Shown here in pieces: positions 10,322 to 44,117 of a DNA stretch of 64,000 nt (position 1 is the first letter of the stretch; the number at the start of each line of letters is the position of its first letter). The DNA is from Minisyncoccia bacterium (lineage in GTDB: Bacteria > Patescibacteriota > Minisyncoccia > Phycocordibacterales > UBA918). The stretch covers positions 201,226 to 265,225 of the forward strand of contig JBKJIT010000004.1 of NCBI GenBank assembly GCA_046598345.1, in the 5' to 3' direction. The notes beneath the pieces were generated by a model. It ran no database searches. It had not been told where the DNA came from and worked only from the letters and a program-made list of their open reading frames with translations. A program made the translations under genes and the position numbers.

Positions 10322-10322
10322 T

Positions 10323-23968: not shown

Positions 23969-24637
23969 TTACTGTAACCCGTCGAATGAGTCAGTCTGGA
24001 TTCTTTCTTCAGGAATTCCCTTTTCTTTAAGTGAAACAACAATAGCATCTACGAATGATGGTGGGCCGGCGACCATAAAGATAGCATTTGGTTTTTGTTC
24101 CTGAAGAATATGTAATGTATCCTCAGTCTCCTCTCGAGTAATGTGAAGCTGTTCAATTGGGAAATAATCCAACTCATTTTTATACAAATAGTTTTCTCTC
24201 GCGATGTGGACTAATGTTGGTTTAAAGCCCAGGCTTCCTGCGGCATGCTCACGGATGATGGATCGAAATGGGGTAATGCCTATTCCACCTGCAATCATAA
24301 TAAGCTCCCCGTCTCTAGGAACTTCGAGATACGTTTTTATCTTGAAGAGCTCAATACTGTCACCTGGTTCCAGTTTTAGGATTTCAGTTTTAAACGGAGA
24401 ACCTGACTCCACCGTCGTCGTGAACATAAGGTGAGGGTCTGAAGGTGCAGCAGCTATGGAGAGGTCTCGCACTGCTTTGTGAGGCGCAGGAACAGAATGA
24501 ATGCGCATATGCACGTAATATCCTGGCCCAAATTCAAAATCAGAGGGTTTGTCGAAGATAAACGTATGAATATGCCCATACTCATGTCGCTTCTCACGAA
24601 GGACTACGTTTGGCCACCTCTTTGTTTCAGGTGGCAT
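23969..24637 (-). CDS. FNR-like FAD/NAD(P)-binding oxidoreductase
   Basis: RxYS-like FAD region and GGIGITPF NAD(P)-binding motif. Confidence 0.7.
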   Translation of the reverse strand: MPPETKRWPNVVLREKRHEYGHIHTFIFDKPSDFEFGPGYYVHMRIHSVPAPHKAVRDLSIAAAPSDPHLMFTTTVESGSPFKTEILKLEPGDSIELFKIKTYLEVPRDGELIMIAGGIGITPFRSIIREHAAGSLGFKPTLVHIARENYLYKNELDYFPIEQLHITREETEDTLHILQEQKPNAIFMVAGPPSFVDAIVVSLKEKGIPEERIQTDSFDGLQ

Positions 24638-24646
24638 ACATAAGTA

Positions 24647-25417
24647 TTAATTTTTTTGGATTTCAAGAATCCTTTTTGGTAAATGAGGATGAGATGCAAG
24701 TGCTTCAGAAAGCCATACAAAAAATCCCTTCTCTGTTTTTGTTTGTTCGATATATGATTCGATATTTACAAGATTGCCCATCGTCTTTCCAGAAACAAGC
24801 TTGACGAGGGCACGTTCACAGGTATTTTGATCAGGAACGAGTGCTTTCATTACTTGGTCAGCTGAATACTCTCGCGCACGCGACAGCGCTGAGTTAAGAA
24901 AAGGAATGAAGGGCACAAGAAACCAATTATAAAAATGAGTATGATTGAGAACATGATGTCCCAGCTCATGTGCAACCACTGCTTTTAGTTGTTCTCTATC
25001 GTTCCCTTCTGTGAGCGCGCTTGCCAGGTCAGAAAAGATTACAAGCATTTTTCTTGAAACTAAGCGGGTTGCGAAGGCGTTGAGTTCTCCACCGGCTTGC
25101 ATTATATGAAGATCGGGCGGTGTTTTAAGTCCAACACGTTCTGAAAGAACTCTCATGGCCTCCCATAACTCTGGAAATTGATTGGGGCCAGCCTTTACGC
25201 TATTGATACGAATCGCGGCCATTGCGAGGAAGTGAAAAAATATATAAAAACAAGTGATTGCAATAAGAATTGCAAGCCAGAAAAGTTCTCCATAATTACC
25301 TTTAAACACTGACCAAACTATCCAGCCGTAAAATAGAGCGCTTATCAGAACACTGCCCATAAAATAAAATTTTTCTTTAGATGTCCTATAGCTTCGGGCA
25401 TTAATATGCTGTTCCAT
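24647..25417 (-). CDS. M48-family zinc metallopeptidase (HtpX-like)
   Basis: HELGHHVLNH zinc motif, N-terminal transmembrane helices, and a later glutamate in REYSADQ. Confidence 0.8.
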   Translation of the reverse strand: MEQHINARSYRTSKEKFYFMGSVLISALFYGWIVWSVFKGNYGELFWLAILIAITCFYIFFHFLAMAAIRINSVKAGPNQFPELWEAMRVLSERVGLKTPPDLHIMQAGGELNAFATRLVSRKMLVIFSDLASALTEGNDREQLKAVVAHELGHHVLNHTHFYNWFLVPFIPFLNSALSRAREYSADQVMKALVPDQNTCERALVKLVSGKTMGNLVNIESYIEQTKTEKGFFVWLSEALASHPHLPKRILEIQKN

Positions 25418-25650: not shown

Positions 25651-26208
25651 TTACGTAACTGAAGTGGGTGCAGAGGGCTGAACTGGAGGTTTTGGAGGGG
25701 GTGTAGGGCGGAATTTATGCAGTATCCAGGCACCAGCAACTACCGTGACTGCATACACTGCAAGAATTGAAACCATAGAGAGCCACATATCTGCAGGGAA
25801 GAATTTGATGCCGTTTGTAAGGAAAAACCCGAGAACGAATGCAACCCACCATCCAATGAATGAGAGTGCGCTTCCCCAGTAGAGGCCAATCTTACGCTTC
25901 GCGAGCATCCATGCATTCACATTGATAAGTACAATAATAATCATCTTCGCCCAAAACACTCCGTCTACGAGCCTAAAGAGTTGATTGTTCATCCAATATT
26001 CAATGATAAAGCCAAGGCCAGAAACAATAGCTATAATAGTTCCCAGACGAGTTATGAAAAAGCTCTTATGCAGAAAGAGCTTATCAGTATCATCCATTTT
26101 TCCATCTTTTAGCGCAGTATTGAGGTTGATCTCAATAAACGTAGCTCCTCCAACGCCTAAAATGGTTCCGATGAGGTGTGCCAGGAGAAGAAATACGTGA
26201 AAGTCCAT
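25651..26208 (-). CDS. hypothetical membrane protein
   Basis: 185 aa, 5 transmembrane helices, Pro-rich C-tail. Confidence 0.45.
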   Translation of the reverse strand: MDFHVFLLLAHLIGTILGVGGATFIEINLNTALKDGKMDDTDKLFLHKSFFITRLGTIIAIVSGLGFIIEYWMNNQLFRLVDGVFWAKMIIIVLINVNAWMLAKRKIGLYWGSALSFIGWWVAFVLGFFLTNGIKFFPADMWLSMVSILAVYAVTVVAGAWILHKFRPTPPPKPPVQPSAPTSVT

Positions 26209-26218
26209 GAAAATAGAA

Positions 26219-26434
26219 TTAAGCTGCTACAGAAGCGGTGTAGCCTAACTTTCCAATTTCTTCGATAATCTGCTCTGCTTTAATTTTTGAATCATCAATC
26301 TCCCATGTACCTTTCTTACCTTCGAGATCAACGAAAACTGACGAAACACCCTCCATTTGTTCCGTTACCATCTGAATACCTGTTGCGCATCCGCCACAGT
26401 GCATTCCGACGATGTTCATATTTAGTGTAGACAT
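26219..26434 (-). CDS. copZ: copper chaperone (HMA domain)
   Basis: 71 aa with GMHCGGC metal-binding motif. Confidence 0.8.
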   Translation of the reverse strand: MSTLNMNIVGMHCGGCATGIQMVTEQMEGVSSVFVDLEGKKGTWEIDDSKIKAEQIIEEIGKLGYTASVAA

Positions 26435-26602: not shown

Positions 26603-28984
26603 TCATCCTACTTTCGGCTTTGAAGCAGCCAATGCATCCTTCTCGCCTTTCTTAATCTGCTTCTCAATAGGCGGAACATACGAATGGAGTGTCATTGAAT
26701 TCAATACTACTGACACGGAACTAAACGCCATCGCAAATCCAGCAATTTCAGGGCGAAGTGTTGCTTGTGAAAGGTTAAAGAGCATTTGCCCAAATGAACC
26801 ATAATTAGCCTGCATAGCAACGACCCAACCTGCCGCAATACCGAACGAGGTTTGAGTAATGAGAAGGTGGGCTCCCGCAGCGACAGGAATCGCTGCCACG
26901 TTGTAGAAGAATGCCCAGAAAAGGTTTTGCCAGACCTTAATAATTGTCTTTCGTGAAAGCTGAATAGCTGTCGCAACATCACGAAGATCGTCCTTAACAA
27001 GAATGATTTCTCCCGTTTCAATTGCCACGTCGCTTCCTGAACCAATAGCAATACCCAAGTTTGCTTGTGCGAGCGCTGGTGAATCATTAATACCGTCTCC
27101 AACCATAGCTACGTTCTTGCCCTCCGCTTGAAGCTTCTTTACCATTGCTGCTTTGTCCTGCGGCAATACTTCTGAGAGCACGCGGGTGATACCAACTAGT
27201 TTTGCAATTGCCTGCGCAGTCTTCTCATTGTCACCAGTAATCATAATAACTTCCTTCCCCATGCGCTTAAATTCAGCGATCGCCTCCTTTGCGTATGGTT
27301 TTAGTGCGTCCGCCATTGCAATGAGTGCGACTGGCTTACCATCGATGAGAAGGAAGACTGTGGTTTTTGCCTGCTCTTGAAGTTCTCCGAGCTTAGTCTG
27401 GTAACCTTTTGTATCAATCTTCAAATTATCCATATAGGTAAGGTTTCCAATGATGACTTCCTTTACCTTTCCACTGTGAGGAATCATTGCCTTAATACCC
27501 ATACCCTGCATCGCTTCAAATTTCTTTAGCATAATAACCTCACCAAACGTCTTTCCATGCTCAATAACTGCTCGCGCAAGTGGATGCTCCGAACCCATTT
27601 CAGCAGAGGCTGCAAGGATCGCAGCTTCTTCGCTTTTTACACTCTGGTCAAGCATTACGAAGTCCGTGACAATTGGTTTACCTATTGTGAGGGTTCCGGT
27701 TTTATCGAGTGCAATCGTATTGACCTTGTATGCTTTCTCAAGCGCTTCTCCTCCCTTCAAGATGATGCCAAACTTCGCTGCGCGCCCAATACCGACTACG
27801 AGTGCGGTCGGCGTTGCGAGACCCATGGCGCACGGACATGAGATCACGAGTACCGCAATCATACGTAAAAGTCCCGCACGTACGGGTAGATCAGCAATAA
27901 ATACCCAGCCAATAAAGGTAAGTACTGAAAGCAGAACAACGGCTGGTACAAAGTACTCGCTCACTTTATCGACAAGATCCTGTACAGGAGCACGCTTCGC
28001 CTGCGCCTCCTCCACCATACGGATTATTTGATAGAGCAGTGTATCCTTACCAATTTTTACTGCCTTAAATTTGAAACGACCTTCTAGATTTACGGTCGCA
28101 CCGATCACATTGTCTCCAGCGATACGTTTAACTGGGAATGATTCTCCAGTAACTACTTTTTCATCAATATGTGTTTCCCCTTCAATAAGGACACCGTCAA
28201 CAGGAACTTTTTCTCCTGGCTTTACGATGATTATGTCTCCTTCAACGAGTTCTTCGAGTGGAATGGTGACTTCCTTTCCATCACGTTCAACATGCGCTTC
28301 TTTAGCTTCGAGCTTAAGAAGTTCCTTAATAGCACTAGACGCCCTTCCCTTTGCAACAACTTCTACGTAGCGTCCTAGAAGAATAAAGGCGATAAGCGCA
28401 GCTGAACTTTCCCAAAATGGATGGTCGATATTGAAGAATAAGAAGCCAATCGCACTGTAGAGGTACGCAGCTGTAGTACCCAATACCACGAGCACATCCA
28501 TGTTTGCAGCTCCAATTCTGACTGCAGACCACGCATTGCGATAGAATGGCCATCCGATAACAAACTGAATTGGTGTAGAAAGAACCCAGTAAATATAGTT
28601 GAGATCGATACCGAAAACCTGGTGTACGTGAGGCAGGTTGAACATGTGTACACCCATGTAATAGGCAATGATGGGCGCTGCAATTGCGAACGCTGCGATA
28701 ACGCGACGCTTTGCAAGCAACATTTCCTTTGCCTCAGCCTTCTCTTCGTCTTCAATCGAATTTGACTCCTCATCCGGACGAATCACATCGTATCCGAGCT
28801 TGTTCACAAATGCATCGATCTGGTTAATCGAAATCTTGGATTCATCAAACTCGAGTGCCACTTTCTGAGCACCATAGCTTGTATTCGACGCGACAACGCC
28901 TGCCTGTTTTAAAAGCAGTTTGTCGATCAGAATGGCGCAAGAGGCGCAATGCATTCCTTTTACTTTAAGTACAAGCTTTGTCAT
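26603..28984 (-). CDS. copA: copper-translocating P1B-type ATPase
   Basis: N-terminal HMA (GMHCASCA), the CPC transmembrane motif (ISCPCAMGLATP), DKTGTLT and GDGINDSPAL. Confidence 0.95.
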   Translation of the reverse strand: MTKLVLKVKGMHCASCAILIDKLLLKQAGVVASNTSYGAQKVALEFDESKISINQIDAFVNKLGYDVIRPDEESNSIEDEEKAEAKEMLLAKRRVIAAFAIAAPIIAYYMGVHMFNLPHVHQVFGIDLNYIYWVLSTPIQFVIGWPFYRNAWSAVRIGAANMDVLVVLGTTAAYLYSAIGFLFFNIDHPFWESSAALIAFILLGRYVEVVAKGRASSAIKELLKLEAKEAHVERDGKEVTIPLEELVEGDIIIVKPGEKVPVDGVLIEGETHIDEKVVTGESFPVKRIAGDNVIGATVNLEGRFKFKAVKIGKDTLLYQIIRMVEEAQAKRAPVQDLVDKVSEYFVPAVVLLSVLTFIGWVFIADLPVRAGLLRMIAVLVISCPCAMGLATPTALVVGIGRAAKFGIILKGGEALEKAYKVNTIALDKTGTLTIGKPIVTDFVMLDQSVKSEEAAILAASAEMGSEHPLARAVIEHGKTFGEVIMLKKFEAMQGMGIKAMIPHSGKVKEVIIGNLTYMDNLKIDTKGYQTKLGELQEQAKTTVFLLIDGKPVALIAMADALKPYAKEAIAEFKRMGKEVIMITGDNEKTAQAIAKLVGITRVLSEVLPQDKAAMVKKLQAEGKNVAMVGDGINDSPALAQANLGIAIGSGSDVAIETGEIILVKDDLRDVATAIQLSRKTIIKVWQNLFWAFFYNVAAIPVAAGAHLLITQTSFGIAAGWVVAMQANYGSFGQMLFNLSQATLRPEIAGFAMAFSSVSVVLNSMTLHSYVPPIEKQIKKGEKDALAASKPKVG

Positions 28985-29004: not shown

Positions 29005-29481
29005 TTAATTTACGAGGTTTGAAAGTGCATTCACAACAAATTTTCCAAGATGCTCAAAATGCCCACGAAAAATTCCCGTGTAAGGGCCCTCTTGAACAAC
29101 TCCTCCTGGGAGATTTCCTGTCGCTTTACTGTCACTGCAGGAGACTGAACAGTAGAATGGGAATTCACCCTCCTTTGAGGCTACAAAATCAACCTCAATG
29201 CGTCCGCTCGCCGGAAGTCTTTGAGAAATACCGAGTGCATCGATTGCAAACCCGTGGTCGAATGTGTCCTCATTAATTACGGTAATGTGCACACGATCAC
29301 ATTTGTTTACAGTGATGCTTTCTGGGTCGAATCTCCACTCAAGTTTCTTTGAAACCACAGTCACATCGCGTGCAATACCCATGTTAGCTGAGCAATCATC
29401 GGTATCAGTAGTGCGACTAAAGATAAACCCGCCTCCAAGAAGTACGACGAGCACGATCCCCATAATTACAAATTTGTTCAT
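29005..29481 (-). CDS. cupredoxin-like domain protein, membrane-anchored (non-canonical ligand set)
   Basis: Start MNKFVIMGIVLVVLL is adjacent to the stop of the upstream giant ORF. ...HITVINEDTFDHGFAI...GEFPFYCSVSCSD resembles the Cupredoxin_1 fold, but the His after the Cys is missing. Confidence 0.45.
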   Translation of the reverse strand: MNKFVIMGIVLVVLLGGGFIFSRTTDTDDCSANMGIARDVTVVSKKLEWRFDPESITVNKCDRVHITVINEDTFDHGFAIDALGISQRLPASGRIEVDFVASKEGEFPFYCSVSCSDSKATGNLPGGVVQEGPYTGIFRGHFEHLGKFVVNALSNLVN

Positions 29482-29482
29482 G

Positions 29483-32400
29483 TTATTTAATTTCAGCTTT
29501 AAGATACTTTTTAACGACGAGGACGAGTGGCACCGTGAGTAGTAGGGAGATGATAAGGAGAATCCACCACTTCTTGTTTGGTGACCATCCAAAATTGTCT
29601 ACACTAAATGATGGTGTGCCAACCTCAATATCGAAGGTTGCAATGCGTGGTGCACTCTCCCCCTTAAGGACAAACGAGACGAAAGCGCGATACTGTCCTT
29701 CAGTCGGAAACTGAGTGGGTACTGAATAGGTTCGTCCACCTGCGGCGACCTCATGCCCATCTGCTATGCCCCCGTGTGCATATGCTACCGGAATACTAAA
29801 TAATGAAGGGGGCAACATTGAGTGTAAGTGTGGCATCGATTCATTAAATCCGGGAGCACCTGGTACGTTCTGGTCTCCAGCGGGAACCGTAGTCGGCTCT
29901 GGAAATGTAGTGTTGCCTGGGTAGGTCACGAAACGTACAGAACCGTCACTTCTCACAAAGGTAATGGTAATCGGTCGGGGAATTACATCGTCGAGCACCA
30001 TTGCTGCACCTTGAGAATCTGAAAATGTAAGTGCTAATAGCGTGTTCTTTCCTACTTCCACAAACCTAGTGTCAGCACTGACTGTGTATTCTCTATCACT
30101 TACTTGATCAGTATAGGAATATGCAAGTGGTTCAACACTTCCTGGGGTAACTGGTCCACCGGACGTTGCACCAGCTGGTGGAGGTGTTGATCCTGAAGCG
30201 GTTGGCTTCACAGTCGCGCGAAATTCATCCCCAATTGCATTTCCATTCTGATCTTCAACACGGAAAGAGAACATCATGCCTGCATGGAGGTGCTCCGAAA
30301 TGTGACAATGTGCCATCCATACACCAGGATTACTCATCTCAACTAGAACATCGATGTACTCACTTGGTGGCACAAGCGCTGTGTCCTTCCACACCATGTT
30401 GTCATTCGGCACGCCATTATTTGAGAGAACTACAAACCGTTGCCCATGAAAGTGGATTGGATGCTGCATGACGTGCGCGGCCATCATGTCATTCGTAAAT
30501 CTGATCTTTACGAGTGAACCTTGTTTAAAGGTCCAGTCATTGATACCCATATTGATCTTTCCGGTTGTCTGATCAATGATATTCCACGCCACATTTTCAG
30601 TCGTGTTAACTTTGTCAGTATTTTGTGCATCATCCCATTGCATTGCCTCAATACCACTTTGCATCATTGGCATTGCAGTTCCAGCGCCATGCCCATGTGG
30701 CATTGATTCATCCACTGATGTGGCCGAAGCAGCTCCTCCGTGTGCGTGTGCGTTGTGATCTACAGCACCGGTAAGTGTGACTGTGAGCAGTGCGCGCTTT
30801 TCAGGTTCTTGTGCCAAATACGCCTGTCTATACTGATCGAAAAGTGCTTTCTCTTCAATATTACGCCTGGCCACATTGAAGTTTTCAACATACGATGGTA
30901 ATGCCTCTTCTTCCTGTGCATCAAATTGAGCTACCACAATTTGGCGATCTGGAAGCATGTTCAGGAGTTTGTAGAGACCCTCCTCCGGGAAATACACTTC
31001 GACAACCAGTCGTTCTGCTGGCGAAAGAAGTACACTTTCCTCATACACTTCTTGTTCAAGTCTTCCCCATTCAGCTCCTACTACTTTTATTTGCGCCCCA
31101 GGGATAGCGAGCTTATAGGTACGTGCATTAGAAACATTGGTAAGGAAGAATCGAACTACCTCTCCCGCCTTTACATCGAGAAGTGCATCGGACTCTCCAT
31201 TAACGAGGTACATATTTCCAAAGCGACCAAGTAGTGCGTGATCAACCGTGTCTTTGTAGAAGTCAGCAATTTGATTGTTCTCAATGAGCACATCGTCAAT
31301 CATGATTGGCACTTCACGGTTCACCTCCGACCAATAGTCAGGGTTGTTCGATGCAACAATATAGCTTCCGTAGAGACCCATTTCTTGGCCATAATCATCT
31401 CTCGTGTGTGGGTGATACCAGGCAACACCAGCGTCGGGGAATGAGAGCGTATAGGTGAATGATTCCCCAGGTTTTACGACGTTTTGGGAAAGATCAGGAG
31501 TACCATCCATGAGATTGTTTAGGCGGAGACCGTGTGAGTGGATGGTTTGATCAACATCAGTATTGTTCTTGAAATTAACAGTAATCACAGAACCTTCAGT
31601 TGTTTTAATGAAAGGCCCAGGGACTGAACCATTGTACGCAAGCATGCGAACCATTTTGTTACCAATCTCCTTCTTTACGTACCCTGCTGTGATGTTATAC
31701 GTATCTCCATTTGCAAGCTCCACAAAGAGCGGGCCAGTAGCTTCTGGAAGACCTGTAATGTCTTTTGTAAATGTAGGGCGCTCTAGTACTGGTGCTTGCG
31801 TAGTGGGTGTCGCGACGTGATGTGTTGTTGCTGCGGGATCAAACTGTTTAAGATAGAAGTTTCGTGGAAGGAAATAAATGAAGAGAATTGCCAAGAATAC
31901 AGAAATCGCAATAAGATAATTGCGCTGAATGCCCAGTATTTTTTCTTCGTATCCGCGAGCAACTGGATCTTTGTAGACACCCGTCTCGCCATATGCAACC
32001 TTAGCTTCTTCGGCTCTTCGAGTTGCTTCAAGTGCATCAATTTCTTCACGGGCATGCTTAAGGTCATAGGTTACCTCGAGCTCATCGACATTCATCATGG
32101 TTTCGACTTGACGTCGATCCCTTTCGAGACGATCTATTTGCGCTTCAAGTGCTGCAACCTTGTACGCAGGACTATTATGCATCTCTCGTCGTCGACGTGC
32201 GTACCACCACCAAATCGGAAGTAGCCACACAAACACGAGGAACCAACTTCCGAGTTCAAGTGGAAGCCCGAAAAGACCAGTACCTGCTTCAATTCCATGT
32301 AGATGAGCAACATTTGTGCCAAGCGTATCGTTCATTATGGCGTTCACCTTCCCTTCCTGCGTCACTGATTCAAGCGCACTATGAATGCCTGAGTTCACCC

Positions 32401-33232
32401 ACCACTTATGTGAGAAAAGTCCAAGCGTAAGAATAAACCCAGAAACGAACACCATAGCCCAACCCGTTGCACGTTCGAGCTTGTCCTTACGAGCCATGAG
32501 CCAGTTAAGACCGTTTACTCCAAGAATTGCGAGGAATGCAAGAAGAAGAAGTGGTAGCACACGTCCTACGGCGTGAATGAGGAACATCGTCCATCCATAA
32601 AGTACATCTCCACTCGAAGCTATTTCAATCAAAATAAGCGGCGTTGCTGGATGCGGGCAGCCAACCCCTACATTTCCTAAAAATGCGCCAAGAAAGAACG
32701 CCTTGAGAATTTCCTGTCTTTTTTGAATAAATGCCGGCGCCGCACCTGAATAGGTCGGCATATGAAAATTCATGAGTCCTATTTCCGAGAGCGCAAAAAG
32801 AAGCGCAAACGTACCGGCACCAAAATAAATCCAGTTCTTAATAGCTTCCAGATCAGCCCCAAGTGAACTTACTGCAATTCCACCGAGAAGAGCTGCTGCA
32901 ATACCATAGAGACTGAGTGTAAAAGCAACTCCAAAACCGAATGCGAGTGCCATACTAAGGCCCTTTATCATTCCCTTTCCCATAGAGAGCGGAACAATAA
33001 CGAACGCAAGCGGCAGTGTGCATGGCATTACGATCATTGTTAGACCTGTTGCAAATGAAAATAAATACCAGCCGATACTGCCATCTGGTACTGACGGAGC
33101 AATTACAAAAAGATAGAGAAGCCCGAAAATAATGGCTGCTGCCACAAAGAGTGTGCCACTGATGAGCCAACCCCGAAGCCCTGACATTCCGCCCGGGGAC
33201 GCTAGAGATGAGGATGGGGTTTCTGTTGTCAT
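29483..33232 (-). CDS. fusion protein: CcdA/DsbD-type thiol-disulfide transporter TM domain + three-domain multicopper oxidase (CueO-like, Met/His-rich insert) + C-terminal domain and TM anchor
   Basis: N-terminal ~300 aa is a polytopic TM domain with CcdA-like paired Cys motifs (MPCTLPLAFV; GVGCPHPATP). The MCO copper motifs are HSHGLRL, WYHPH, HPIHFHGQRF and HCHISEHLHAGM. The Met/His-rich run is DHNAHAHGG..MPHGHGAGTAMPMM. It ends with a terminal hydrophobic helix. Single uninterrupted 1249-codon ORF. Confidence 0.85.
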   Translation of the reverse strand: MTTETPSSSLASPGGMSGLRGWLISGTLFVAAAIIFGLLYLFVIAPSVPDGSIGWYLFSFATGLTMIVMPCTLPLAFVIVPLSMGKGMIKGLSMALAFGFGVAFTLSLYGIAAALLGGIAVSSLGADLEAIKNWIYFGAGTFALLFALSEIGLMNFHMPTYSGAAPAFIQKRQEILKAFFLGAFLGNVGVGCPHPATPLILIEIASSGDVLYGWTMFLIHAVGRVLPLLLLAFLAILGVNGLNWLMARKDKLERATGWAMVFVSGFILTLGLFSHKWWVNSGIHSALESVTQEGKVNAIMNDTLGTNVAHLHGIEAGTGLFGLPLELGSWFLVFVWLLPIWWWYARRRREMHNSPAYKVAALEAQIDRLERDRRQVETMMNVDELEVTYDLKHAREEIDALEATRRAEEAKVAYGETGVYKDPVARGYEEKILGIQRNYLIAISVFLAILFIYFLPRNFYLKQFDPAATTHHVATPTTQAPVLERPTFTKDITGLPEATGPLFVELANGDTYNITAGYVKKEIGNKMVRMLAYNGSVPGPFIKTTEGSVITVNFKNNTDVDQTIHSHGLRLNNLMDGTPDLSQNVVKPGESFTYTLSFPDAGVAWYHPHTRDDYGQEMGLYGSYIVASNNPDYWSEVNREVPIMIDDVLIENNQIADFYKDTVDHALLGRFGNMYLVNGESDALLDVKAGEVVRFFLTNVSNARTYKLAIPGAQIKVVGAEWGRLEQEVYEESVLLSPAERLVVEVYFPEEGLYKLLNMLPDRQIVVAQFDAQEEEALPSYVENFNVARRNIEEKALFDQYRQAYLAQEPEKRALLTVTLTGAVDHNAHAHGGAASATSVDESMPHGHGAGTAMPMMQSGIEAMQWDDAQNTDKVNTTENVAWNIIDQTTGKINMGINDWTFKQGSLVKIRFTNDMMAAHVMQHPIHFHGQRFVVLSNNGVPNDNMVWKDTALVPPSEYIDVLVEMSNPGVWMAHCHISEHLHAGMMFSFRVEDQNGNAIGDEFRATVKPTASGSTPPPAGATSGGPVTPGSVEPLAYSYTDQVSDREYTVSADTRFVEVGKNTLLALTFSDSQGAAMVLDDVIPRPITITFVRSDGSVRFVTYPGNTTFPEPTTVPAGDQNVPGAPGFNESMPHLHSMLPPSLFSIPVAYAHGGIADGHEVAAGGRTYSVPTQFPTEGQYRAFVSFVLKGESAPRIATFDIEVGTPSFSVDNFGWSPNKKWWILLIISLLLTVPLVLVVKKYLKAEIK

Positions 33233-33236
33233 ACGC

Positions 33237-33497
33237 TTATGAAAGTTCCTTTAACTTATTTATAAAATCTTTTTCGTTCACCCCTCCGGTTGAGAAAAGC
33301 TCGCCATTTATGATAATTCCTGGAGAGGCAAATATTTGATGCTTTTGTACAAGTTCTTGTCCTGCAGGATCCATAAGGCTTACCTCTGAGAATTTTACAT
33401 TCGGCCAATCCGCTTTTATCGTCTCCCAAAACGCTTTAAAAGCCGCGCAGTGTGTGCATCCCGGTGATGATAGTTCCTCAAGTAAAATTTCTCGCAT
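33237..33497 (-). CDS. small cytoplasmic thioredoxin-fold protein (CxxC = CTHC), the usual CcdA partner type
   Basis: 86 aa with SPGCTHCAAF and no signal peptide. Ends 4 nt before the CcdA-MCO start. Confidence 0.7.
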   Translation of the reverse strand: MREILLEELSSPGCTHCAAFKAFWETIKADWPNVKFSEVSLMDPAGQELVQKHQIFASPGIIINGELFSTGGVNEKDFINKLKELS

Positions 33498-33580: not shown

Positions 33581-34153
33581 CTAGCAAGAAATTTCTTGAT
33601 ATCTAAAACAATCTTTGATGTGATCGTTTACCATTCCTACAGCTTGCATGTGCGCGTACCAAACTGTCGGTCCCAAGAACTTAAAACCTCGCTTTTTAAG
33701 ATCTTTAGACATTGCTATAGCCAGATCGGTGATCACAGGAATGTTCTTCCCCGTCTTTCTTTTTCCATCAATTGGTTTATCTGCAACCCAATTCCACATG
33801 TACGTACTAAAACTTCCAAACTCTTTCTGAACCTTAAGAAATGCCTGAGCATTTGTAATCGTCGAAGTAATTTTAAGACGATTTCTAATTACAGATGCCT
33901 CATTACAGAGCCTCTCAGCGTCTTGTCCAGTCATTTTTGCTACTTTCTTTGGCTCAAAATTTTTGAATGCTTTCCTATACCCTTCTCGCTTATTTAAAAT
34001 GATTCTCCAGGAAAGCCCTGCTTGGGCACTTTCGAGCACTATAAATTCAAAGAGTTTTTGATCGTCGTATATTGGTACTCCCCATTCTTCATCATGGTAC
34101 TTAACATAGAGATCGTCACCTCCTTCTGTCCATTTGCATCTTTTCATATGCAA
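33581..34153 (-). CDS. tag: DNA-3-methyladenine glycosylase I
   Basis: MKRCKWTEGGDDLYVKYHDEEWGVP...LESAQAGLSW is a Tag hallmark. Confidence 0.9.
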   Translation of the reverse strand: MHMKRCKWTEGGDDLYVKYHDEEWGVPIYDDQKLFEFIVLESAQAGLSWRIILNKREGYRKAFKNFEPKKVAKMTGQDAERLCNEASVIRNRLKITSTITNAQAFLKVQKEFGSFSTYMWNWVADKPIDGKRKTGKNIPVITDLAIAMSKDLKKRGFKFLGPTVWYAHMQAVGMVNDHIKDCFRYQEISC

Positions 34154-34468: not shown

Positions 34469-34933
34469 TTAGCGAGTCACGACCATCTCTTCATCTTCAG
34501 TGTACGCGAATGGAGCGCAAACACTGATGCGACCCCCTGGTGTCTTAATAATCCTGTATGAAGTTCCTTGGTCAGTAGACTCAGCAGGATCACTTGGAAT
34601 GTTAGTCAAATACTTCTCGTCGGTAATCAAATCGTCAATTCTAATACCATCACAAGAAAAACCTACTTTACAAATATCAAGTCCATCTTCAATGCACGAT
34701 GCCCCAGTAGGAATATCTCCTGGGTATGTACCTTGATTATCAATAGCATATTGGTGCACAGCATCAAGAATTGATCGAATATCACTTCTTCTTTGGGCAT
34801 CTTGTGCCTCACTAAATTGCTTTCCAGGATTAATCGCAACAATCACTACGGCAGCTAGAATTGCAAGAATTGCAATAACAAGAAGTACTTCAATAAGAGT
34901 GAAACCCTGTGTGTTGTTATTTCCTTTAAGCAT
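34469..34933 (-). CDS. type IV pilin / pseudopilin (prepilin-type N-terminal methylation domain)
   Basis: TQGFTLIEVLLVIAILAILAAVV is a class III signal with G|FTLIE. 5 Cys in the globular part. Confidence 0.8.
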   Translation of the reverse strand: MLKGNNNTQGFTLIEVLLVIAILAILAAVVIVAINPGKQFSEAQDAQRRSDIRSILDAVHQYAIDNQGTYPGDIPTGASCIEDGLDICKVGFSCDGIRIDDLITDEKYLTNIPSDPAESTDQGTSYRIIKTPGGRISVCAPFAYTEDEEMVVTR

Positions 34934-39133: not shown

Positions 39134-42022
39134 TTATTGGTTTAATATTGTGCGTGTTTTTGGCCCTACGGTACCTGTGGGCTCAATTACATGCTTTAGT
39201 TGCAGGAATTTGACGGCAGATTTAGTTAGGTCTCCAAAGTAACCGGTTATGTCTCCATTGTAAACCTCAAGTGAGGTAAGTAGCTTCTGAAGCTCCGACA
39301 CCTCGGTTCCGCTAGAGCCAAGTTGTAGATCTTTTGTAAAAAAGTATTTAGAAGCACCCATGACTTCTGAAGATACTGTTTGTAATACGGTTAAATCTAC
39401 TTCATTACTCAATAAACCGTTCGGAAGCTGTGCAGAGATTTTGTGGAGCCCTATACTTGTTACTGGAACATAAAAGGTGAGTTGGTTTTCAGAAGGAGTG
39501 TTAATAAGAGCTGGTCGATTCTTATCGAACATGATGTAGGTAACACCTCTCAAATTTATGCCTTCTACGGTAATTAATCTGCCGATTTCAGCTGAACTTG
39601 CGGAAATTGATCCAATATATGGAGCGTCGCTGCACTGATCTAGGAGGATTTTAATACTGGAAATATCAGAAGCAGTAATGGTAAGACTTGCATTTAGATC
39701 AGCTTTGTCATCGAAACCAGAATTGGAAGAAATAAGCCCAGACTTTGATTTAACATATTCAACATCTTTTGCGTCAATAGAACCATCTCCGTTTACATCG
39801 GCATTTGAACACGTTGGTGCAGCAGTTCCTGAAGTACTTACAGTGTAAGTGAGAACCGTACAATTATTCGTTTCACTTGATTCACTCACAATCCCTGAAG
39901 AATCAACACAGTGCCTCACTTGCAGAGTCCCTGATTTAGTAAGTGCTAAACTAGCTGAAGTATCAAGGAACCGTCCTCCTGCAGCTGTTGTTCCTCGAGG
40001 ACTTGTAGTATTCAATGCTTCCCATGGACTTATGGTGTCGTAGCGGTAAGAAAAACTATCGACATACATTGACGGTGCATTTACTGTACTGCTATTTTTT
40101 ACTTCAGCAGTAAATGAAAGAGTCTGCCCCACTGTATAAACTGAGCTATTTCCTGAAACGAGAGTAAATGCTTGGCTGATAAGATCGGGTAATGCTGCGT
40201 TAGTTTGCGTAACCGATACAGAAACTGTTGCAGATTTAGAAACTGAGCCAGCTGAATTTGAACAAGTAATAGTATAGGTTGTCGTTTCTGTAGGATTTAC
40301 AATCGCTGTCGCAGAAGTCTTGCCAGAATCCCATCCAACATTCGTGGCGCTACAATAATCGGCACCAGTGGACGAAAGTGTTAGCGAACTACTTTGCCCG
40401 ACAGTGATGCTTGACGGTGTTGCTGCAAAATTTGTGATTATTGGTAGCGTCGATAAAGTATTTGGATTAACACTATACACGACTATAGTGCAATTATTGG
40501 TTTCGTTGGATTCGCTTACAATCCCAGAAGAATCAACGCAATGTTTTACTTCCAATAATCCTGCCTGAGTAAGCATGAGTGATGATGAGGTATCGAGGAA
40601 CCTACCCCCCGCAGCAGTGGTTCCGCGAGGACTTGTGGTATTGAGGGTAATCCAAGAACCGGACGACCCGTAGCGGTACGAGAATGTATCAACATACATT
40701 GATGGAGACTGGGTAGTGCTATTGTTTTTTACTTCTGCCGAAAATGAGATAGTTTGTCCGACAGTGAGCACTGGACTGGGGCCCGAGCTAAGACCAAAGG
40801 TTTGGCTAATGAGATCTGGCAATCCGGTAGTAACTTCAGTTACGGGTGCACACGCATTGAGCCACGAGAGGATTGAGCTTGCTTCGGTCCGTCTTGCTCC
40901 AGTGCCAACCGCTCCAGTTGTGAGCGAACTCCCTGTAAGCCCTGTGAGATACCTTGTGATTATAAGTCCGTCTGTGAGTGAAGAAATTTTGTCATCACCG
41001 TCTGCGTCGTAATCATGAGTTGCAATAAAGTTTTCAATGGCCGTTGAAGTTATGCGCGTAGCACCTGCCCCAATCACACCAGTAATGAGCTGGCTCCCTC
41101 GGTAGGAGTTAAGGTACCGAGTAATTAACAAGCCATCTGTAAGCGCATCTTTTTTTCCGTTACCATCGATGTCGAGGTTACAAGCTTCTACAGTTGAATC
41201 TGAATCCAATGAAGGTGTACCCCCAATTGTGAAAGGCCCAGTTTGGCCATCACCAGTTCCACCTCTATGGATTCCTGTGCTGTAATCGTAGACAGTCAGG
41301 GCGTATGCTCCATTTTTTAAGTTCGGATCATGGGCCCAAACAAAACTACCTGTATTTGAGATGCCTTGAGCAAGATATTTTGCTACTTGGCCGTTTTTTT
41401 CTCCTGATGCAAAAAAAAGTGCAATACCTATTTTATGATCGCCTAATCCTGACGAGGTCCATCTTATAGTTGCAATTGGTGAATTACCCGTTCCTTTTGT
41501 ACCACTATTATCTAAACTATACCCTGCTTGTGGATAGGTTACAGTAATAGCTGGCGTTTCAGCAACTGGAAGAGGTATGTCTGACTCGCATGTGTAAAAT
41601 GCATTTAGTTTTGCACGTGTACTTGGGCCCGTCTTCCCTGTTCCATAGAGAAGGCCATACGGTGCAAGGATTTCGCTCGCATACTTTTGTTGGAAGCCCG
41701 TTACGGCAGCCGCAGTTGCCTCGTCGTAGGATGTGGAATCATTGGAGTTAAAACCTTGAAGCTTAAGTGCTGTCTTTAATGCAATCACTTCAGCGCCGGA
41801 ATCACCCACATTCAAGTTATATGTAAACTCATGACAAAACGATCCACTGGATGTCTCACCAGTAGTTCTGCCAGTCATAGTATTAACTTGTGCCTGAAGT
41901 TGCGTAATGAGAGCAAGCAACTGCTGAATTTGTGCAAGCATTTCGTCAATCGTTGCCGCCTTCGAAACAATGGGTGTAAATAGTGCGAATACAAGCAAAG
42001 TGCTAACAAGGAGTTTTTTCAT
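39134..42022 (-). CDS. large secreted surface protein: signal peptide, PG_binding_1-like domains at both ends, dockerin/EF-hand-like Ca-binding repeats, two CARDB-like domains
   Basis: MKKLLVSTLLVFALFTPIVSKA signal. PG-binding-like VGDSGAEVIALKTALKLQGF... and C-terminal LQLGSSGTEVSELQKLL... Asp/Gly-rich repeats DIDGNGKKDALTDGLLITRYL and DYDADGDDKISSLTDGLIITRYL. Two ~115-aa paralogous segments ending ...SESNETNNC / ...SESSETNNC (CARDB E-x-NE-x-NN signature). Confidence 0.7.
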   Translation of the reverse strand: MKKLLVSTLLVFALFTPIVSKAATIDEMLAQIQQLLALITQLQAQVNTMTGRTTGETSSGSFCHEFTYNLNVGDSGAEVIALKTALKLQGFNSNDSTSYDEATAAAVTGFQQKYASEILAPYGLLYGTGKTGPSTRAKLNAFYTCESDIPLPVAETPAITVTYPQAGYSLDNSGTKGTGNSPIATIRWTSSGLGDHKIGIALFFASGEKNGQVAKYLAQGISNTGSFVWAHDPNLKNGAYALTVYDYSTGIHRGGTGDGQTGPFTIGGTPSLDSDSTVEACNLDIDGNGKKDALTDGLLITRYLNSYRGSQLITGVIGAGATRITSTAIENFIATHDYDADGDDKISSLTDGLIITRYLTGLTGSSLTTGAVGTGARRTEASSILSWLNACAPVTEVTTGLPDLISQTFGLSSGPSPVLTVGQTISFSAEVKNNSTTQSPSMYVDTFSYRYGSSGSWITLNTTSPRGTTAAGGRFLDTSSSLMLTQAGLLEVKHCVDSSGIVSESNETNNCTIVVYSVNPNTLSTLPIITNFAATPSSITVGQSSSLTLSSTGADYCSATNVGWDSGKTSATAIVNPTETTTYTITCSNSAGSVSKSATVSVSVTQTNAALPDLISQAFTLVSGNSSVYTVGQTLSFTAEVKNSSTVNAPSMYVDSFSYRYDTISPWEALNTTSPRGTTAAGGRFLDTSASLALTKSGTLQVRHCVDSSGIVSESSETNNCTVLTYTVSTSGTAAPTCSNADVNGDGSIDAKDVEYVKSKSGLISSNSGFDDKADLNASLTITASDISSIKILLDQCSDAPYIGSISASSAEIGRLITVEGINLRGVTYIMFDKNRPALINTPSENQLTFYVPVTSIGLHKISAQLPNGLLSNEVDLTVLQTVSSEVMGASKYFFTKDLQLGSSGTEVSELQKLLTSLEVYNGDITGYFGDLTKSAVKFLQLKHVIEPTGTVGPKTRTILNQ

Positions 42023-42101
42023 TAAAAGTGATTAGATTTATATACTTTCAGCATATCACCTTCATGATAAAAATATGAAGTTCTCCCCTATTCCAAGGTG
42101 A

Positions 42102-44117
42102 TTACCTGTTTAAGAGGGCTCGAGTTTGTGCACCTATAATTCCAACCGCAGGCAGCTGAAAGGCTCCCTGGAAGTGAAGCGCAGCGAGTTTAGTAGCCTC
42201 ACCAAAGAATCCGGTTGGCTCTCCAGAGAAAAATCCTTTTTGAGTAAGTACTTTCTGAAGTTCAGTAACTTCAGTACCACTGTCTCCAAATTGTAAAGTT
42301 TTAGTAAAATTATATTTGTACGTTCCGAGTACCTGACCGGGTGTCACAATCATAAATATGGTATTGCAGTTATTCACCTCATTTGATTCAAGCGTTACAT
42401 TGGTTGTGTCTACACAGTGCATCACTTCTAGTACGCCACTTTCCGATAGATAAATTTGCCCAGAAATGTCCATGAAACGACCTGATTCTGCTGTGGTCCC
42501 GTGCATGCCGGTGTTATTAACTGTTGTCCAAGGAGTTCCTGATGCATACCTGTAATAAAATGTATCAATGTAACCACTCGGAGCCTGTGCATATATTGAG
42601 TCATTTTTAACTTCTGCAGTGAAATTAACTGATTGTCCTTTTACCAAACTACCGGAAGACAACCTGAGTGCTTGACTGATAAGGTCTGGTCTTGTTGTGG
42701 TTCCGCCAGGTTGTACAACAACTGTTACAGAAGATGAAGCTGAGCCGTAAGAGTTAAAGCAAGTGACGCTATAAGTAGTTGTCTGCTTGGGATAGAAAAA
42801 CTGAACTGCAGTCGTAGCGTTCGTTGCATTTGCTGTATTCTTACATGCAGTGGCATTCGAACTTGAATACTTTAGGGCAGTATAATTTCCTGCTGTAATT
42901 AAATTTGGTGAAGCTGAAAGCGTCACTGTAGGATATGAGGGTTGTGGTACCGGTTGATTAATGCCGCGAATCATTTGATAGTTAGTAGCAAATTCTCCGA
43001 TAGGAAGGGGCAGATATTGATATCCAAGCGTTGTTGTAGTGCTGAAGTTAAGACTAGTCAATTCAGCTCTTATTGACTCCGTAAAAGCACCATTCAATTT
43101 CATAACTCCGTTAAAATTGAACGAACGTGTTGTTCCTGCGGCAATTTTATACAAATTCACTGGCTCTTCTAAAGAAGAAGATTCTAAAGATGCACTGACG
43201 ACAGAAATATATCCAGGAACTATTCCATCAGGTTTTTTAGCAGTAAAAGTAAGTCCCAAGCCTGTACTCGTCGACATGGCTGTAAACGTTGAATTTCGTC
43301 CAATGTACACATCCACTACTGGAGCGGTTACCTCAAACTCAATCGAATATACACCATGCACTTCTCCCGAATCTCCTATGGGTCTACTCTCTGCACTTGA
43401 ATCTGCAAAATCAATAATTGGATCTGGGATGGGAATTATTTTTACTGTAACAATATTACTCTGTCCATTTTCATTTGTTATATAAAGAGGATACGTGTTC
43501 CCAGGCGTAAGAGAAAATGGAACTGTAATCATAAGTTGAGTGTCTGTCGCCCACTTTGCTTTTGCTTGCATCCCTCCAATGGAAGCAGAAATTGCATCAA
43601 TAGAATTAATTCCAAGATACTTTCCATTAATAACCAAGTCCCCTGATGCATATGCTTCAAAACTTTGCGCTGCATAAGCTTCTGTTGATGCGATATACGG
43701 TTTGTATGAAAGTCCTGATGTTTGGGCAAGATTGAAATAATCGTTGCTATAGTCACACAATGGTTTAGAGGAAACAGGATCAATAGTCCCGTTATCGCAG
43801 ACGGCAACTTTATATTTACCAGGAGCAACAGTTGCAGGAACAGCAAGTGAATCAATTTGTTTTTTCTTTACATTGGTAAAGAGTGGAATTTTTGACACGA
43901 CACTCGCATTCATTGGGCTGTACAAAAAGGCAACCGGTTGTTTGGGAACATGGGTAGCACTCCAGGTAAAAGGAAGAAGATTTACATCTTTTCTTCCTAA
44001 AGAAATGGTCTCACCACCGTTAGGGGTAAGAATAGTAATTGAGGGAGTCTGCGCGGATGAGACTGCCGGCATAAGTAAACCAAGCGCAAATATAAAGCTT
44101 AGAAGCAGTTTTTTCAT
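42102..44117 (-). CDS. paralogous secreted surface protein with one CARDB-like domain and C-terminal PG_binding_1-like domain
   Basis: Signal MKKLLLSFIFALGLLMPAVSSA. CARDB-like segment ...LESNEVNNC. C-terminal LQFGDSGTEVTELQKVL... Its upstream region is homologous to the upstream region of the 39134-42022 gene (shared agcatatcacc...tatgaag...cccc). Confidence 0.7.
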   Translation of the reverse strand: MKKLLLSFIFALGLLMPAVSSAQTPSITILTPNGGETISLGRKDVNLLPFTWSATHVPKQPVAFLYSPMNASVVSKIPLFTNVKKKQIDSLAVPATVAPGKYKVAVCDNGTIDPVSSKPLCDYSNDYFNLAQTSGLSYKPYIASTEAYAAQSFEAYASGDLVINGKYLGINSIDAISASIGGMQAKAKWATDTQLMITVPFSLTPGNTYPLYITNENGQSNIVTVKIIPIPDPIIDFADSSAESRPIGDSGEVHGVYSIEFEVTAPVVDVYIGRNSTFTAMSTSTGLGLTFTAKKPDGIVPGYISVVSASLESSSLEEPVNLYKIAAGTTRSFNFNGVMKLNGAFTESIRAELTSLNFSTTTTLGYQYLPLPIGEFATNYQMIRGINQPVPQPSYPTVTLSASPNLITAGNYTALKYSSSNATACKNTANATNATTAVQFFYPKQTTTYSVTCFNSYGSASSSVTVVVQPGGTTTRPDLISQALRLSSGSLVKGQSVNFTAEVKNDSIYAQAPSGYIDTFYYRYASGTPWTTVNNTGMHGTTAESGRFMDISGQIYLSESGVLEVMHCVDTTNVTLESNEVNNCNTIFMIVTPGQVLGTYKYNFTKTLQFGDSGTEVTELQKVLTQKGFFSGEPTGFFGEATKLAALHFQGAFQLPAVGIIGAQTRALLNR

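Follow-up and report, generated by a model that had tools for sequence, protein, structure and literature searches.

Proteins of the DsbD family have been linked to copper tolerance (ScsB/ScsC, DsbD/DsbC). TlpA draws its electrons from CcdA/DsbD, and in pathways related to TlpA-ScoI/PcuC-CoxB the copper is supplied by a dedicated copper ATPase. The cysteines of CuA sites need a dedicated reductase that keeps them reduced before metallation, and TlpA does this for the CuA cysteines of CoxB and for the CxxxC of ScoI (PMC6669012). In Bacillus subtilis, YtkA-type domains that are fused to a membrane copper protein assist the assembly of CuA (PMC13344008). In an archaeon, DsbD-family genes and multicopper oxidases (MCOs) were co-induced by copper limitation and DsbD was speculated to bind Cu+ (PMC7785015); the link between the DsbD family and copper itself is not new. 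Here we describe an open reading frame (ORF) that joins a CcdA/DsbD-type membrane module to a complete MCO, and the copper operon in which it lies. It was found on the minus strand (29483..33232) of a 64,000-nucleotide stretch of a Minisyncoccia bacterium (assembly GCA_046598345.1, contig JBKJIT010000004.1), which we call the window and to which all positions refer. The sequence-only reading, an earlier inspection of this DNA, had known of no description of such a fusion. No description of the fusion or of the operon was found in the literature searched, while the automatic name given at JGI already carries both parts ('FtsP/CotA-like multicopper oxidase.../cytochrome c biogenesis protein CcdA'); its novelty concerns the literature searched and not the databases. 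We tentatively favour, at slightly less than even confidence, that the fusion ORF would be a natural end-to-end join of two neighbouring genes of a copper operon confined to Parcubacteria-group Patescibacteria and that this operon would act as a surface copper machine.

The fusion ORF is a single ATG-started frame encoding 1249 amino acids (aa), in agreement with the 1249 codons first reported. A Pfam scan returned four domains, each above its gathering cut-off: DsbD_TM (PF02683; aa 58-234; 37.1 bits, gathering score 27.1), Cu-oxidase_3 (aa 525-629), Cu-oxidase (aa 673-748) and Cu-oxidase_2 (aa 881-995). The scan confirmed the CcdA/DsbD-type N-terminal domain and the complete three-domain MCO that had been proposed. 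The order along the protein is a transmembrane helix (TM0), a six-TM core of the CcdA/DsbD type, a His loop, TM7, a helical linker, TM8, the MCO, an immunoglobulin-like (Ig-like) domain and TM9. The motifs quoted from the letters of the sequence (MPCTLP, GVGCPHP, HSHG, WYHPH, HPIHFHG and a fourth one) were all present and were invariant in 72 aligned full-length homologues, in which the two cysteines of the module and the twelve ligands of the MCO did not vary either. The whole protein has three cysteines: C71 and C192 of the module and C976, the type 1 (T1) copper ligand, which is the sole cysteine of the MCO and the C-terminal domain.

The search for the same fusion in related genomes, which had been suggested, was positive. 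More than 90 homologue cluster representatives from NCBI, JGI, ENA and Logan assemblies showed the same four-Pfam architecture with 45-72% identity over the full length. This bears on an alternative in which the ORF is an artefact, either an assembly chimera or a gene pair masked by a frameshift. Split versions do exist elsewhere with the break in one and the same loop, and assemblies of metagenome-assembled genomes (MAGs) can hold errors. The fusion is not an assembly chimera, because the homologue clusters come from independent assemblies and share the architecture. In addition, the linker itself is conserved, the base composition is even across the fusion region including the junction, and the contig context recurs, with ATP synthase downstream also on the L001 and L003 contigs. 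A 3.7-kb ORF with such profile matches cannot have arisen by chance, and the wider 64-kb window is ordinary chromosome with ATP synthase, UvrA/UvrB, BipA and two tRNAs. The artefact reading is effectively refuted and we leave it next to no probability. The fusion is genuine, recurrent and evolutionarily maintained.

The partners of the module were then counted. A sequence-pattern search over the GTDB species, with one genome for each, gave 148 module loci, of which the best 80 were kept, and the architecture counts refer to 84 loci that were scanned with hidden Markov models (HMMs) built locally from our own alignments. The module was fused to Ig-like domains in 32 of the 84 loci, to an MCO in 11 and to the cytoplasmic helical linker only in 10. 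The type found in the window, with linker, MCO and Ig-like domain, was present in 7 loci; 2 had the MCO and the Ig-like domain with no linker match, and 1 had the linker and the MCO in an ORF running off the contig end. A separate module gene was followed by an Ig protein as the next ORF (12 loci) or by an MCO as the next ORF (2 loci), and in 7 loci the module stood alone. Within this copper operon of Patescibacteria the module is constant and its C-terminal partner is interchangeable, the MCO being one choice among several.

In the split loci the first gene stops just after the basic tail of TM7 and the second starts a few residues before TM8. The break point of the split genes is the cytoplasmic TM7-TM8 loop, where the window ORF has its helical linker, and the linker is the junction of two ancestral genes. 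Ig-type relatives have a short loop at the linker position, and the linker profile also finds coil-only proteins. A break between the two parts in sister genomes had been named as evidence against the fusion. Such split pairs were indeed found in the TM7-TM8 loop; the fused form nonetheless recurs in more than 90 clusters. The existence of fused and split gene pairs argues that the products of the two genes work together (the 'Rosetta stone' argument).

Two further forms of the protein were seen. The coil-only variant (about 510-585 aa; L016-L024, L030, L077) consists of the module, the linker and TM8 and has no extracellular domain; its loci, several of them deposited as Lloydbacteria MAGs, show the same operon with a longer cupredoxin-profile ORF of about 600-750 nucleotides. 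In another form (P0092; L082, L083, L085) the module is fused to a two-domain MCO, for which the best PDB matches were 3g5w and 2zwn and not the three-domain enzymes. In the loci of this latter type the thioredoxin gene of the operon, Trx_3, lies downstream of the fusion and not upstream.

The titles of the module loci pointed mostly to candidate phyla of the Patescibacteria/Parcubacteria group or gave no phylum. The named groups were Kaiser-, Lloyd-, Ryan-, Sung-, Lipton-, Wildermuth-, Vogel-, Wolfe-, Yanofsky- and Giovannonibacteria and others; these labels are those deposited, and the lineage was confirmed for Kaiserbacteria only. Many loci are labelled 'uncultured Candidatus Saccharibacteria', which we suspect to be a pipeline default, and two loci labelled Azotimanducaceae and Acidimicrobiales are suspected binning errors.

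The topology of the fusion protein was predicted from hydropathy and the positive-inside rule. The prediction was self-consistent and placed the N-terminus inside the cell. The ORF does not open directly with the CcdA-type domain, as had been thought, since the extra helix TM0 (aa 22-45, by hydropathy) precedes the CcdA core. The short loops after TM1, TM3 and TM5 of the six-TM core are rich in K/R and lie on the cytoplasmic face, and the predicted orientation of the core is that of DsbD-beta. After TM6, an outside loop (aa 275-318) carries the invariant residues H275, H284 and H310-x-H312-G. This loop, with its HxHG (window 32297-32410, aa 275-312), resembles a copper site. It is followed by TM7 (aa 319-344) with RRRR on its cytoplasmic side and by the cytoplasmic linker (31940..32197, minus strand; about aa 345-431), which is charged, helical and coiled-coil-like, with helices at 355-379, 382-388 and 391-415 in the AlphaFold2 (AF2) model. 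TM8 (31853..31939, minus strand; about aa 432-460, with the helix at 435-455 by hydropathy) would be the signal-anchor helix that places the MCO outside, and a helix of the same type also starts the separate MCO or Ig genes in the split loci. Instead of the three further hydrophobic segments that had been counted before the MCO there are two, TM7 and TM8, which flank the charged helical stretch.

The protein ends with TM9 (29504..29578, minus strand; aa 1219-1243), which was found by hydropathy and in the AF2 model and has a KK...K cytoplasmic tail. With TM8 before it and TM9 after it, the unit of MCO and Ig-like domain is tethered to the membrane at both ends. The question on which face the MCO sits was answered by the predicted topology, in which it is on the extracytoplasmic face. 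No twin-arginine (Tat) motif was found before the MCO of the fusion ORF, which is internal and preceded by TM8. The test for a Tat signal was also negative for the separate-gene versions of the MCO, which start with a single-Arg signal anchor. Because the Tat motif is missing, the MCO is presumably exported unfolded and metallated outside the cell.

The CcdA/DsbD-type membrane module (32198..33232, minus strand; aa 1-345) extends from TM0 over the six core TMs and the outside loop to TM7. C71 lies in TM1 (MPCTLP) and C192 in TM4 (GVGCPHP). A profile of 29 module sequences was aligned by hhalign with DsbD of E. coli (probability 89.5%, E 2e-6). In the numbering of mature DsbD, C71 was aligned on Cys163 (TPCVLP) and C192 on Cys285 (SPC), the two catalytic cysteines of DsbD, and both residues were invariant in three alignments. 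The NCBIfam models for DsbD and for the rhodanese/DsbD fusion TsoB also matched the N-terminus of the fusion ORF with E about 1e-8. The TM1 sequence M-P-C-T-L-P is a canonical P-C-x-x-P, and the TM4 sequence G-C-P-H-P departs from it with a Gly before the Cys and prolines after it. This TM4 motif was found as G[VI]GCPHP in 85/85 module ORFs of the fetched loci; the hallmarks of the subfamily are [FVI]LPCT[LF]P in TM1 and G[VI]GCP[HN]P in TM4. The wider family of the module mostly has GCPNP in TM4, and the idea that CPH is its ancestral motif was rejected. M66, M84, M158 and H220 are further invariant residues of the module.

These residues bring in another explanation, in which the module would handle copper itself. 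As a thiol-driven cupric reductase, it would accept electrons from Trx_3 on C71/C192, which would pass them to Cu(II) bound at the outside His cluster; as a Cu(I) conduit, it would offer a path through the membrane lined by Cys, His and Met. The extracellular Ig domains would capture the copper, in the way that the CopD channel of B. subtilis YcnJ is served by CopC and YtkA, and the CopZ and CopA proteins of the operon would re-export it to metallate the cupredoxin and the MCO. The Cys-Pro-His of TM4 in all 85 module ORFs resembles the CPx metal motif of P1B ATPases, and the four invariant Met and His residues just named and the four outside His (H275, H284, H310, H312) are in line with copper handling. 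The DsbD family has been placed in a transporter superfamily rich in metal-ion carriers, and the dipeptide within the CxxC of Trx_3 usually contains a His. The architecture also parallels that of YcnJ (CopC-CopD-YtkA), for which a model with copper transit through the cytosol has been put forward (PMC13344008), and the speculation that archaeal DsbD homologues bind Cu+ (PMC7785015) points in the same direction. Against this, both cysteines are exactly at the catalytic positions of DsbD, and a dedicated Trx-fold protein with its cis-Pro loop, encoded alongside, is what an electron carrier classically pairs with. The His of TM4 is not ancestral, as the wider family mostly has GCPNP there. A copper pump and a chaperone are already present in the operon, and copper would be cycled futilely if one protein both reduced and oxidised it. 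We regard a copper-handling module as rather unlikely.

The MCO (30233..31735, minus strand; aa about 500-1000) is a three-domain enzyme like CueO and the Thermus MCO. It has the full T1/T2/T3 ligand set in HSHG (H565, H567), WYHPH (H607, H609), HPIHFHG (H924, H927, H929) and HCHISEHLHAGM (H975, C976, H977, H981, M986). The best NCBIfam model for the fusion ORF was CueO, which was matched over positions 49-528 of its 529 with 162 bits; this score is below the cut-off of 525 bits for CueO orthology (equivalog NF008205). The nearest solved structures were those of three-domain enzymes from bacteria: 4f7k, 6vox/6vow, 3zx1 ('oxidoreductase, putative') and the Thermus MCO 2xu9, followed by CueO itself (1kv7). 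A His/Met-rich insert (DHNAHAHG...MPHGHGAGTAMPMMQ; 30629..30769, minus strand; aa about 822-868) was present, in which H826 and H829 are invariant among the aligned homologues. The sequence-only reading had recognised it as CueO-like and placed it after the fourth copper motif; it lies before the third motif, between domains 2 and 3. The Met-rich segment of CueO presumably occupies the same relative place. A Met-rich segment before domain 3, the hallmark of cuprous oxidases, is therefore present in the fusion ORF as the insert between Cu-oxidase and Cu-oxidase_2.

The C-terminal beta-rich domain and the terminal TM helix were seen again in the AF2 model (pLDDT 80.6). The domain is an extracytoplasmic Ig-like beta-sandwich (29588..30145, minus strand; aa about 1030-1215) with conserved H1137 and H1160 in flexible loops. 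It shares homology with the final domain of the Ig-type relatives (26% identity, E 3e-9), and its fold is similar to the copper proteins CrdA and CopC; no relative at the sequence level was found in the PDB. A Pfam YtkA match (PF13115) was absent in the fusion ORF. The first Ig domain of the Ig-type relatives gave weak YtkA matches of 18-21 bits, below the cut-off of 25.9.

The genes of the copper cluster in the window are all on the minus strand and tightly spaced. The fusion is preceded by a Thioredoxin_3 protein of 86 aa (Trx_3; 33237..33497; Pfam 34 bits against a cut-off of 24.8), the presumed electron donor, whose stop codon is 4 nucleotides before the fusion ATG. Trx_3 has an SSPGCTHC active site, a cis-Pro SPG and no signal peptide. 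Its CxxC and cis-Pro loop were invariant in 5 aligned orthologues, and the CxxC was found in 76/76 Trx_3 copies of related loci, where the PGCxxC site usually contains a His. Trx_3 lies upstream of the module in 63 of the 74 loci with enough flank.

The fusion is followed by a membrane-anchored CuA-like cupredoxin of 158 aa (29005..29481; Pfam Cupredoxin_1) with an N-terminal anchor helix, whose ATG is 1 nucleotide after the fusion stop. Its putative ligands are H77, C112-x3-C116 and H142. A profile of five orthologues matched nitrosocyanin, the CuA domain of NosZ and CoxB (cytochrome oxidase subunit II). In the NosZ alignment, H77 fell on the HG histidine and C112/C116 on the two cysteines of YCSWFC, positions that we take to be CuA ligands. 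Among 75 loci the His and each Cys were conserved in 75/75 and the second His in 68/75. The cupredoxin lies downstream of the module in 73/76 loci, and its CxxxC is the sole conserved extracytoplasmic cysteine pair of the operon.

Next come a CopA-type P1B copper ATPase of 793 aa (26603..28984; Pfam HMA, E1-E2_ATPase and Hydrolase) with an N-terminal HMA and a CPC motif, a CopZ-type copper chaperone of 71 aa with MHCGGC (26219..26434; Pfam HMA, 47.8 bits) and, as the last gene, a polytopic membrane protein of 185 aa (25651..26208). CopA was present in 64/64 loci, a count that overstates the evidence as its denominator includes loci counted because CopA was found in them. CopZ is conserved after CopA in related loci. 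The window copy of the 185-aa membrane protein had no Pfam match, its L001 orthologue weakly matched DUF2214/DUF2269, and the gene is conserved after CopZ in MCO-type loci. The gene order of the window operon was repeated around three other MCO-type and two Ig-type genes. The operon fits a surface copper system into about 8 kb: it provides for the supply of electrons and of copper, encodes a copper-thiolate protein and, in certain lineages, also includes an oxidase.

Taken together, these observations are brought into one scheme by the favoured reading, a join of two neighbouring genes. Gene 1 would encode an 8-TM thiol-disulfide carrier of the CcdA/DsbD type, and gene 2 a membrane-anchored CueO-like MCO with an Ig-like copper-binding domain. 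Reducing equivalents would pass from Trx_3 to C71/C192 and be delivered to the outer face, the direction that we infer for the electrons. CopZ would hand Cu(I) to CopA, which would pump it out, and the tethered MCO, as a putative cuprous oxidase, would oxidise the Cu(I) to the less toxic Cu(II) at the membrane. The Ig-like domain and the neighbouring cupredoxin would handle copper, the Ig-like domain probably as a shuttle. The likeliest client of the relay would be the CxxxC copper site of the cupredoxin, which, left unprotected, O2 and Cu(II) would oxidise and which the relay could keep reduced in an oxidising, copper-rich setting; the cupredoxin is proposed as client of the thiol relay, as acceptor of Cu(I), or as both. 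A relay that reduces the MCO was considered and rejected, because the MCO has no free cysteines to reduce. The fusion would have arisen from two translationally coupled neighbours and would give co-localisation and a 1:1 stoichiometry, not a direct redox link. These cells are expected to have neither an outer membrane nor a periplasm. Since the cell probably has no periplasm to retain soluble partners, the fusion would secure their proximity and stoichiometry.

Several points weigh against this scheme. The module is a small, sharply bounded and remote CcdA/DsbD-like subfamily: phmmer with the module against 1.84 billion cluster representatives gave 271 matches at E up to 1e-3. Nothing meaningful was found by phmmer and hmmsearch of the module against the PDB, where TtCcdA was not reached. 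A Foldseek search of the PDB with the model of the N-terminal module returned only non-significant transporter matches. The Cys-Pro-His of TM4, the Met of TM1 and the four invariant outside His are not needed for electron transfer and look like copper ligands. A few relatives are without both module cysteines, and in one of them (P0210, 988 aa) the MCO and Ig part is intact. The cupredoxin does not have the canonical CuA motif CxxxCxxxHxxM: the next His comes 8-26 residues on in most copies, it is 3 residues after the second Cys in only 5/75, and no Met is conserved there. The known clients of CcdA/DsbD are Trx-fold proteins or DsbD's own domains; there would be no precedent for a cupredoxin being reduced directly by a membrane domain of the CcdA type, and no Trx-fold acceptor was seen in the loci. 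Another Cys-less relative, P0174 (416 aa), consists of the module and the linker only.

The acceptor question also bears on the redox relay that the sequence-only reading had proposed. The relay is plausible with its aligned cysteines and a CxxC thioredoxin gene 4 nucleotides upstream. A Trx-fold acceptor of the ResA, CcsX, TlpA, DsbC, ScsC or DsbD gamma type was not seen in the 84 loci covered by the local HMM scan, nor among the genes called in the five loci that were read. In one rival explanation the module would feed a general repair of copper-oxidised envelope cysteines in the manner of ScsB/ScsC and DsbD/DsbC, and the fused MCO would be part of a joint copper defence. Conservation of the catalytic cysteines and of the Trx donor fits such a repair, the operon has a copper exporter and a chaperone of the detoxification kind, and dsbD of E. 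coli K-12 adjoins cutA, annotated as 'copper binding protein CutA'. No DsbC/ScsC-like acceptor was seen, however, in the 84 loci, though one may be encoded elsewhere in the genome, beyond the 64-kb window; the fused extracellular domains are without cysteines, and the invariable partner is a specific CxxxC cupredoxin and not a general oxidoreductase. We consider general thiol repair improbable. The stronger form of the idea, in which the fusion covalently couples Cu(I) detoxification to thiol repair, would need a thiol client outside the cytoplasm and is not supported: the MCO and the C-terminal domain have no cysteine except the T1 ligand. Nor is it supported by the MCO being an interchangeable partner that is a separate next gene in some genomes and is kept in one lineage with a Cys-less module.

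A further rival takes the cupredoxin as an electron carrier. CuA-type cupredoxins carry electrons and MCOs reduce O2 to water. Electrons would run from Trx_3 over the CcdA-like cysteines and the cupredoxin to the T1 copper of the MCO and to O2, an oxidase chain without cytochromes or quinones that would make water at the cell surface; CopA and CopZ would only metallate the two cuproproteins. A fermentative bacterium with no respiratory chain could dump electrons in this way or remove O2. These organisms are expected to have no respiratory chain, and such an oxidase chain would suit them. The alignment of the cupredoxin to CuA domains, the two MCO classes fused to the same module and the translational coupling of relay, carrier and oxidase with gaps of 4 and 1 nucleotides are consistent with this chain, as are the DoxX-like and FMN-reductase genes of related operons. 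Most operons, however, do not include an MCO, since 32 are Ig-type, 10 are coil-only and 7 are module-only whereas about 23 contain one, and O2 reduction is therefore not the core function. The insert of the MCO is of the CueO type, Met/His-rich and suited to Cu(I), the cupredoxin does not have the full CuA ligand set, one MCO fusion is without the module cysteines, and no precedent is known for such a chain. We hold it to be very improbable.

The core of Trx_3, module and cupredoxin, with or without the MCO, might also be a route, not recognised before, by which thiol reductant from the cytoplasm is coupled to extracellular copper chemistry; we judge this to be unlikely. It could be a thiol-driven cupric reductase or Cu(I) conduit or, in the MCO version, a cytochrome- and quinone-free path from thioredoxin to O2. 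If true, either would be a new surface redox machine for the respiration-poor Patescibacteria. The present evidence does not show a new catalytic principle. The operon offers a testable case for the role of a CcdA-type carrier, in organisms in which c-type cytochromes are not expected. It suggests that a member of the CcdA family may serve a client other than a thioredoxin, or copper directly, and it shows how an MCO can be put to use with no Tat signal and, probably, with no periplasm.

Some related operons contain additional genes. In Ig-type operons a DoxX/MauE-like membrane gene lies between Trx_3 and the module gene, and a gene for a flavin mononucleotide (FMN) reductase (Flavodoxin_2/FMN_red) follows CopZ (P0105 locus; L005 2387-2764 and 7939-8556). 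P0143, of 880 aa, is a fusion of DoxX and a CcdA-like part. These three observations suggest a larger thiol/flavin redox module.

Around the copper cluster, the window encodes an M48 peptidase and a 222-aa ORF just downstream (24647-25417(-) and 23969-24637(-)); the latter has a ferredoxin/ferric-reductase-type NAD-binding domain. A 3-methyladenine DNA glycosylase (Adenine_glyco) is encoded upstream of Trx_3 in the window (33581-34153(-)) and in L001 (5065-5643), and further upstream, with two genes between, in L005 (288-824); its position is probably plain synteny. A type IV pilin-like protein (N_methyl motif, GFTLIEVLLVIAILAILAAV) is encoded close by at 34469-34933(-). At 10272-13457(+) the window has a 1061-aa RND transporter of the AcrB/AcrD/AcrF family (584 bits), in a host that is expected to have no outer membrane. 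Large predicted surface proteins are encoded at 39134-44117(-) and 51414-54200(-); two of them have a C-terminal PG_binding_1 and one of these also CARDB and dockerin repeats, and a third has Big_13 and bacterial TSP3 repeats. An Rfam scan of the window found the two tRNAs only and nothing near the copper operon. Promoter and terminator scans of 25.3-34.3 kb gave the same counts as shuffled sequence and did not delimit the operon borders.

How the fusion and its operon relate to described systems can now be summarised. Known thiol repair by ScsB/ScsC and DsbD/DsbC acts via the soluble Trx-fold proteins ScsC and DsbC, of which none was seen in the operons, and it has no fusion to an MCO. The likeness to CcdA/DsbD-beta (TtCcdA, 5vkv) consists of the Pfam match, the aligned cysteines, the PCxxP of TM1 and a predicted six-TM core with the inferred orientation. 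A cytoplasmic partner with a thioredoxin fold is encoded next door, and DsbD is likewise fused to extracytoplasmic domains. The module differs from this family by the additional TM0 and TM7, by GCPHP instead of PCxxP in TM4 and by the outside His cluster with its HxHG, whereas canonical CcdA ends after TM6 and has no counterpart of this loop. The outside domains fused to the module are copper proteins without cysteines and not Trx or Ig redox domains, and the context of cytochrome c maturation is missing.

With the Cue system of E. coli (CopA, CueO) and the MCO of Thermus thermophilus, the operon shares a P1B Cu(I) exporter, a three-domain MCO with the four copper motifs and the Met/His-rich insert between domains 2 and 3, and the CueO model is matched nearly end to end. 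CopZ and CopA are co-encoded. In contrast to Cue, the MCO scores 162 bits, far below the CueO cut-off of 525, has no Tat signal, is TM-anchored at both ends, is fused to a polytopic protein and must be metallated outside the cell.

The TlpA-ScoI/PcuC-CoxB pathway of Bradyrhizobium (PMC6669012) resembles the proposed scheme in supplying reductant for a CxxxC copper site on a membrane-anchored cupredoxin and in having an Ig-like Cu(I) chaperone. It differs in its TlpA/Sco Trx-fold intermediates, which were not seen in the operon loci; the cupredoxin of the operon is a protein by itself, with only part of the CuA motif, and not a subunit of an oxidase, and it is to the electron carrier that the chaperone-like domain is joined. 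Finally, YcnJ of B. subtilis (PMC13344008) has CopD as its membrane part where the module has DsbD_TM, and it is without a redox cysteine pair and a thioredoxin partner. The fusion and YcnJ are alike in that extracellular Ig-like domains for copper binding, among them a C-terminal one of the YtkA type, are joined to a polytopic membrane copper protein.

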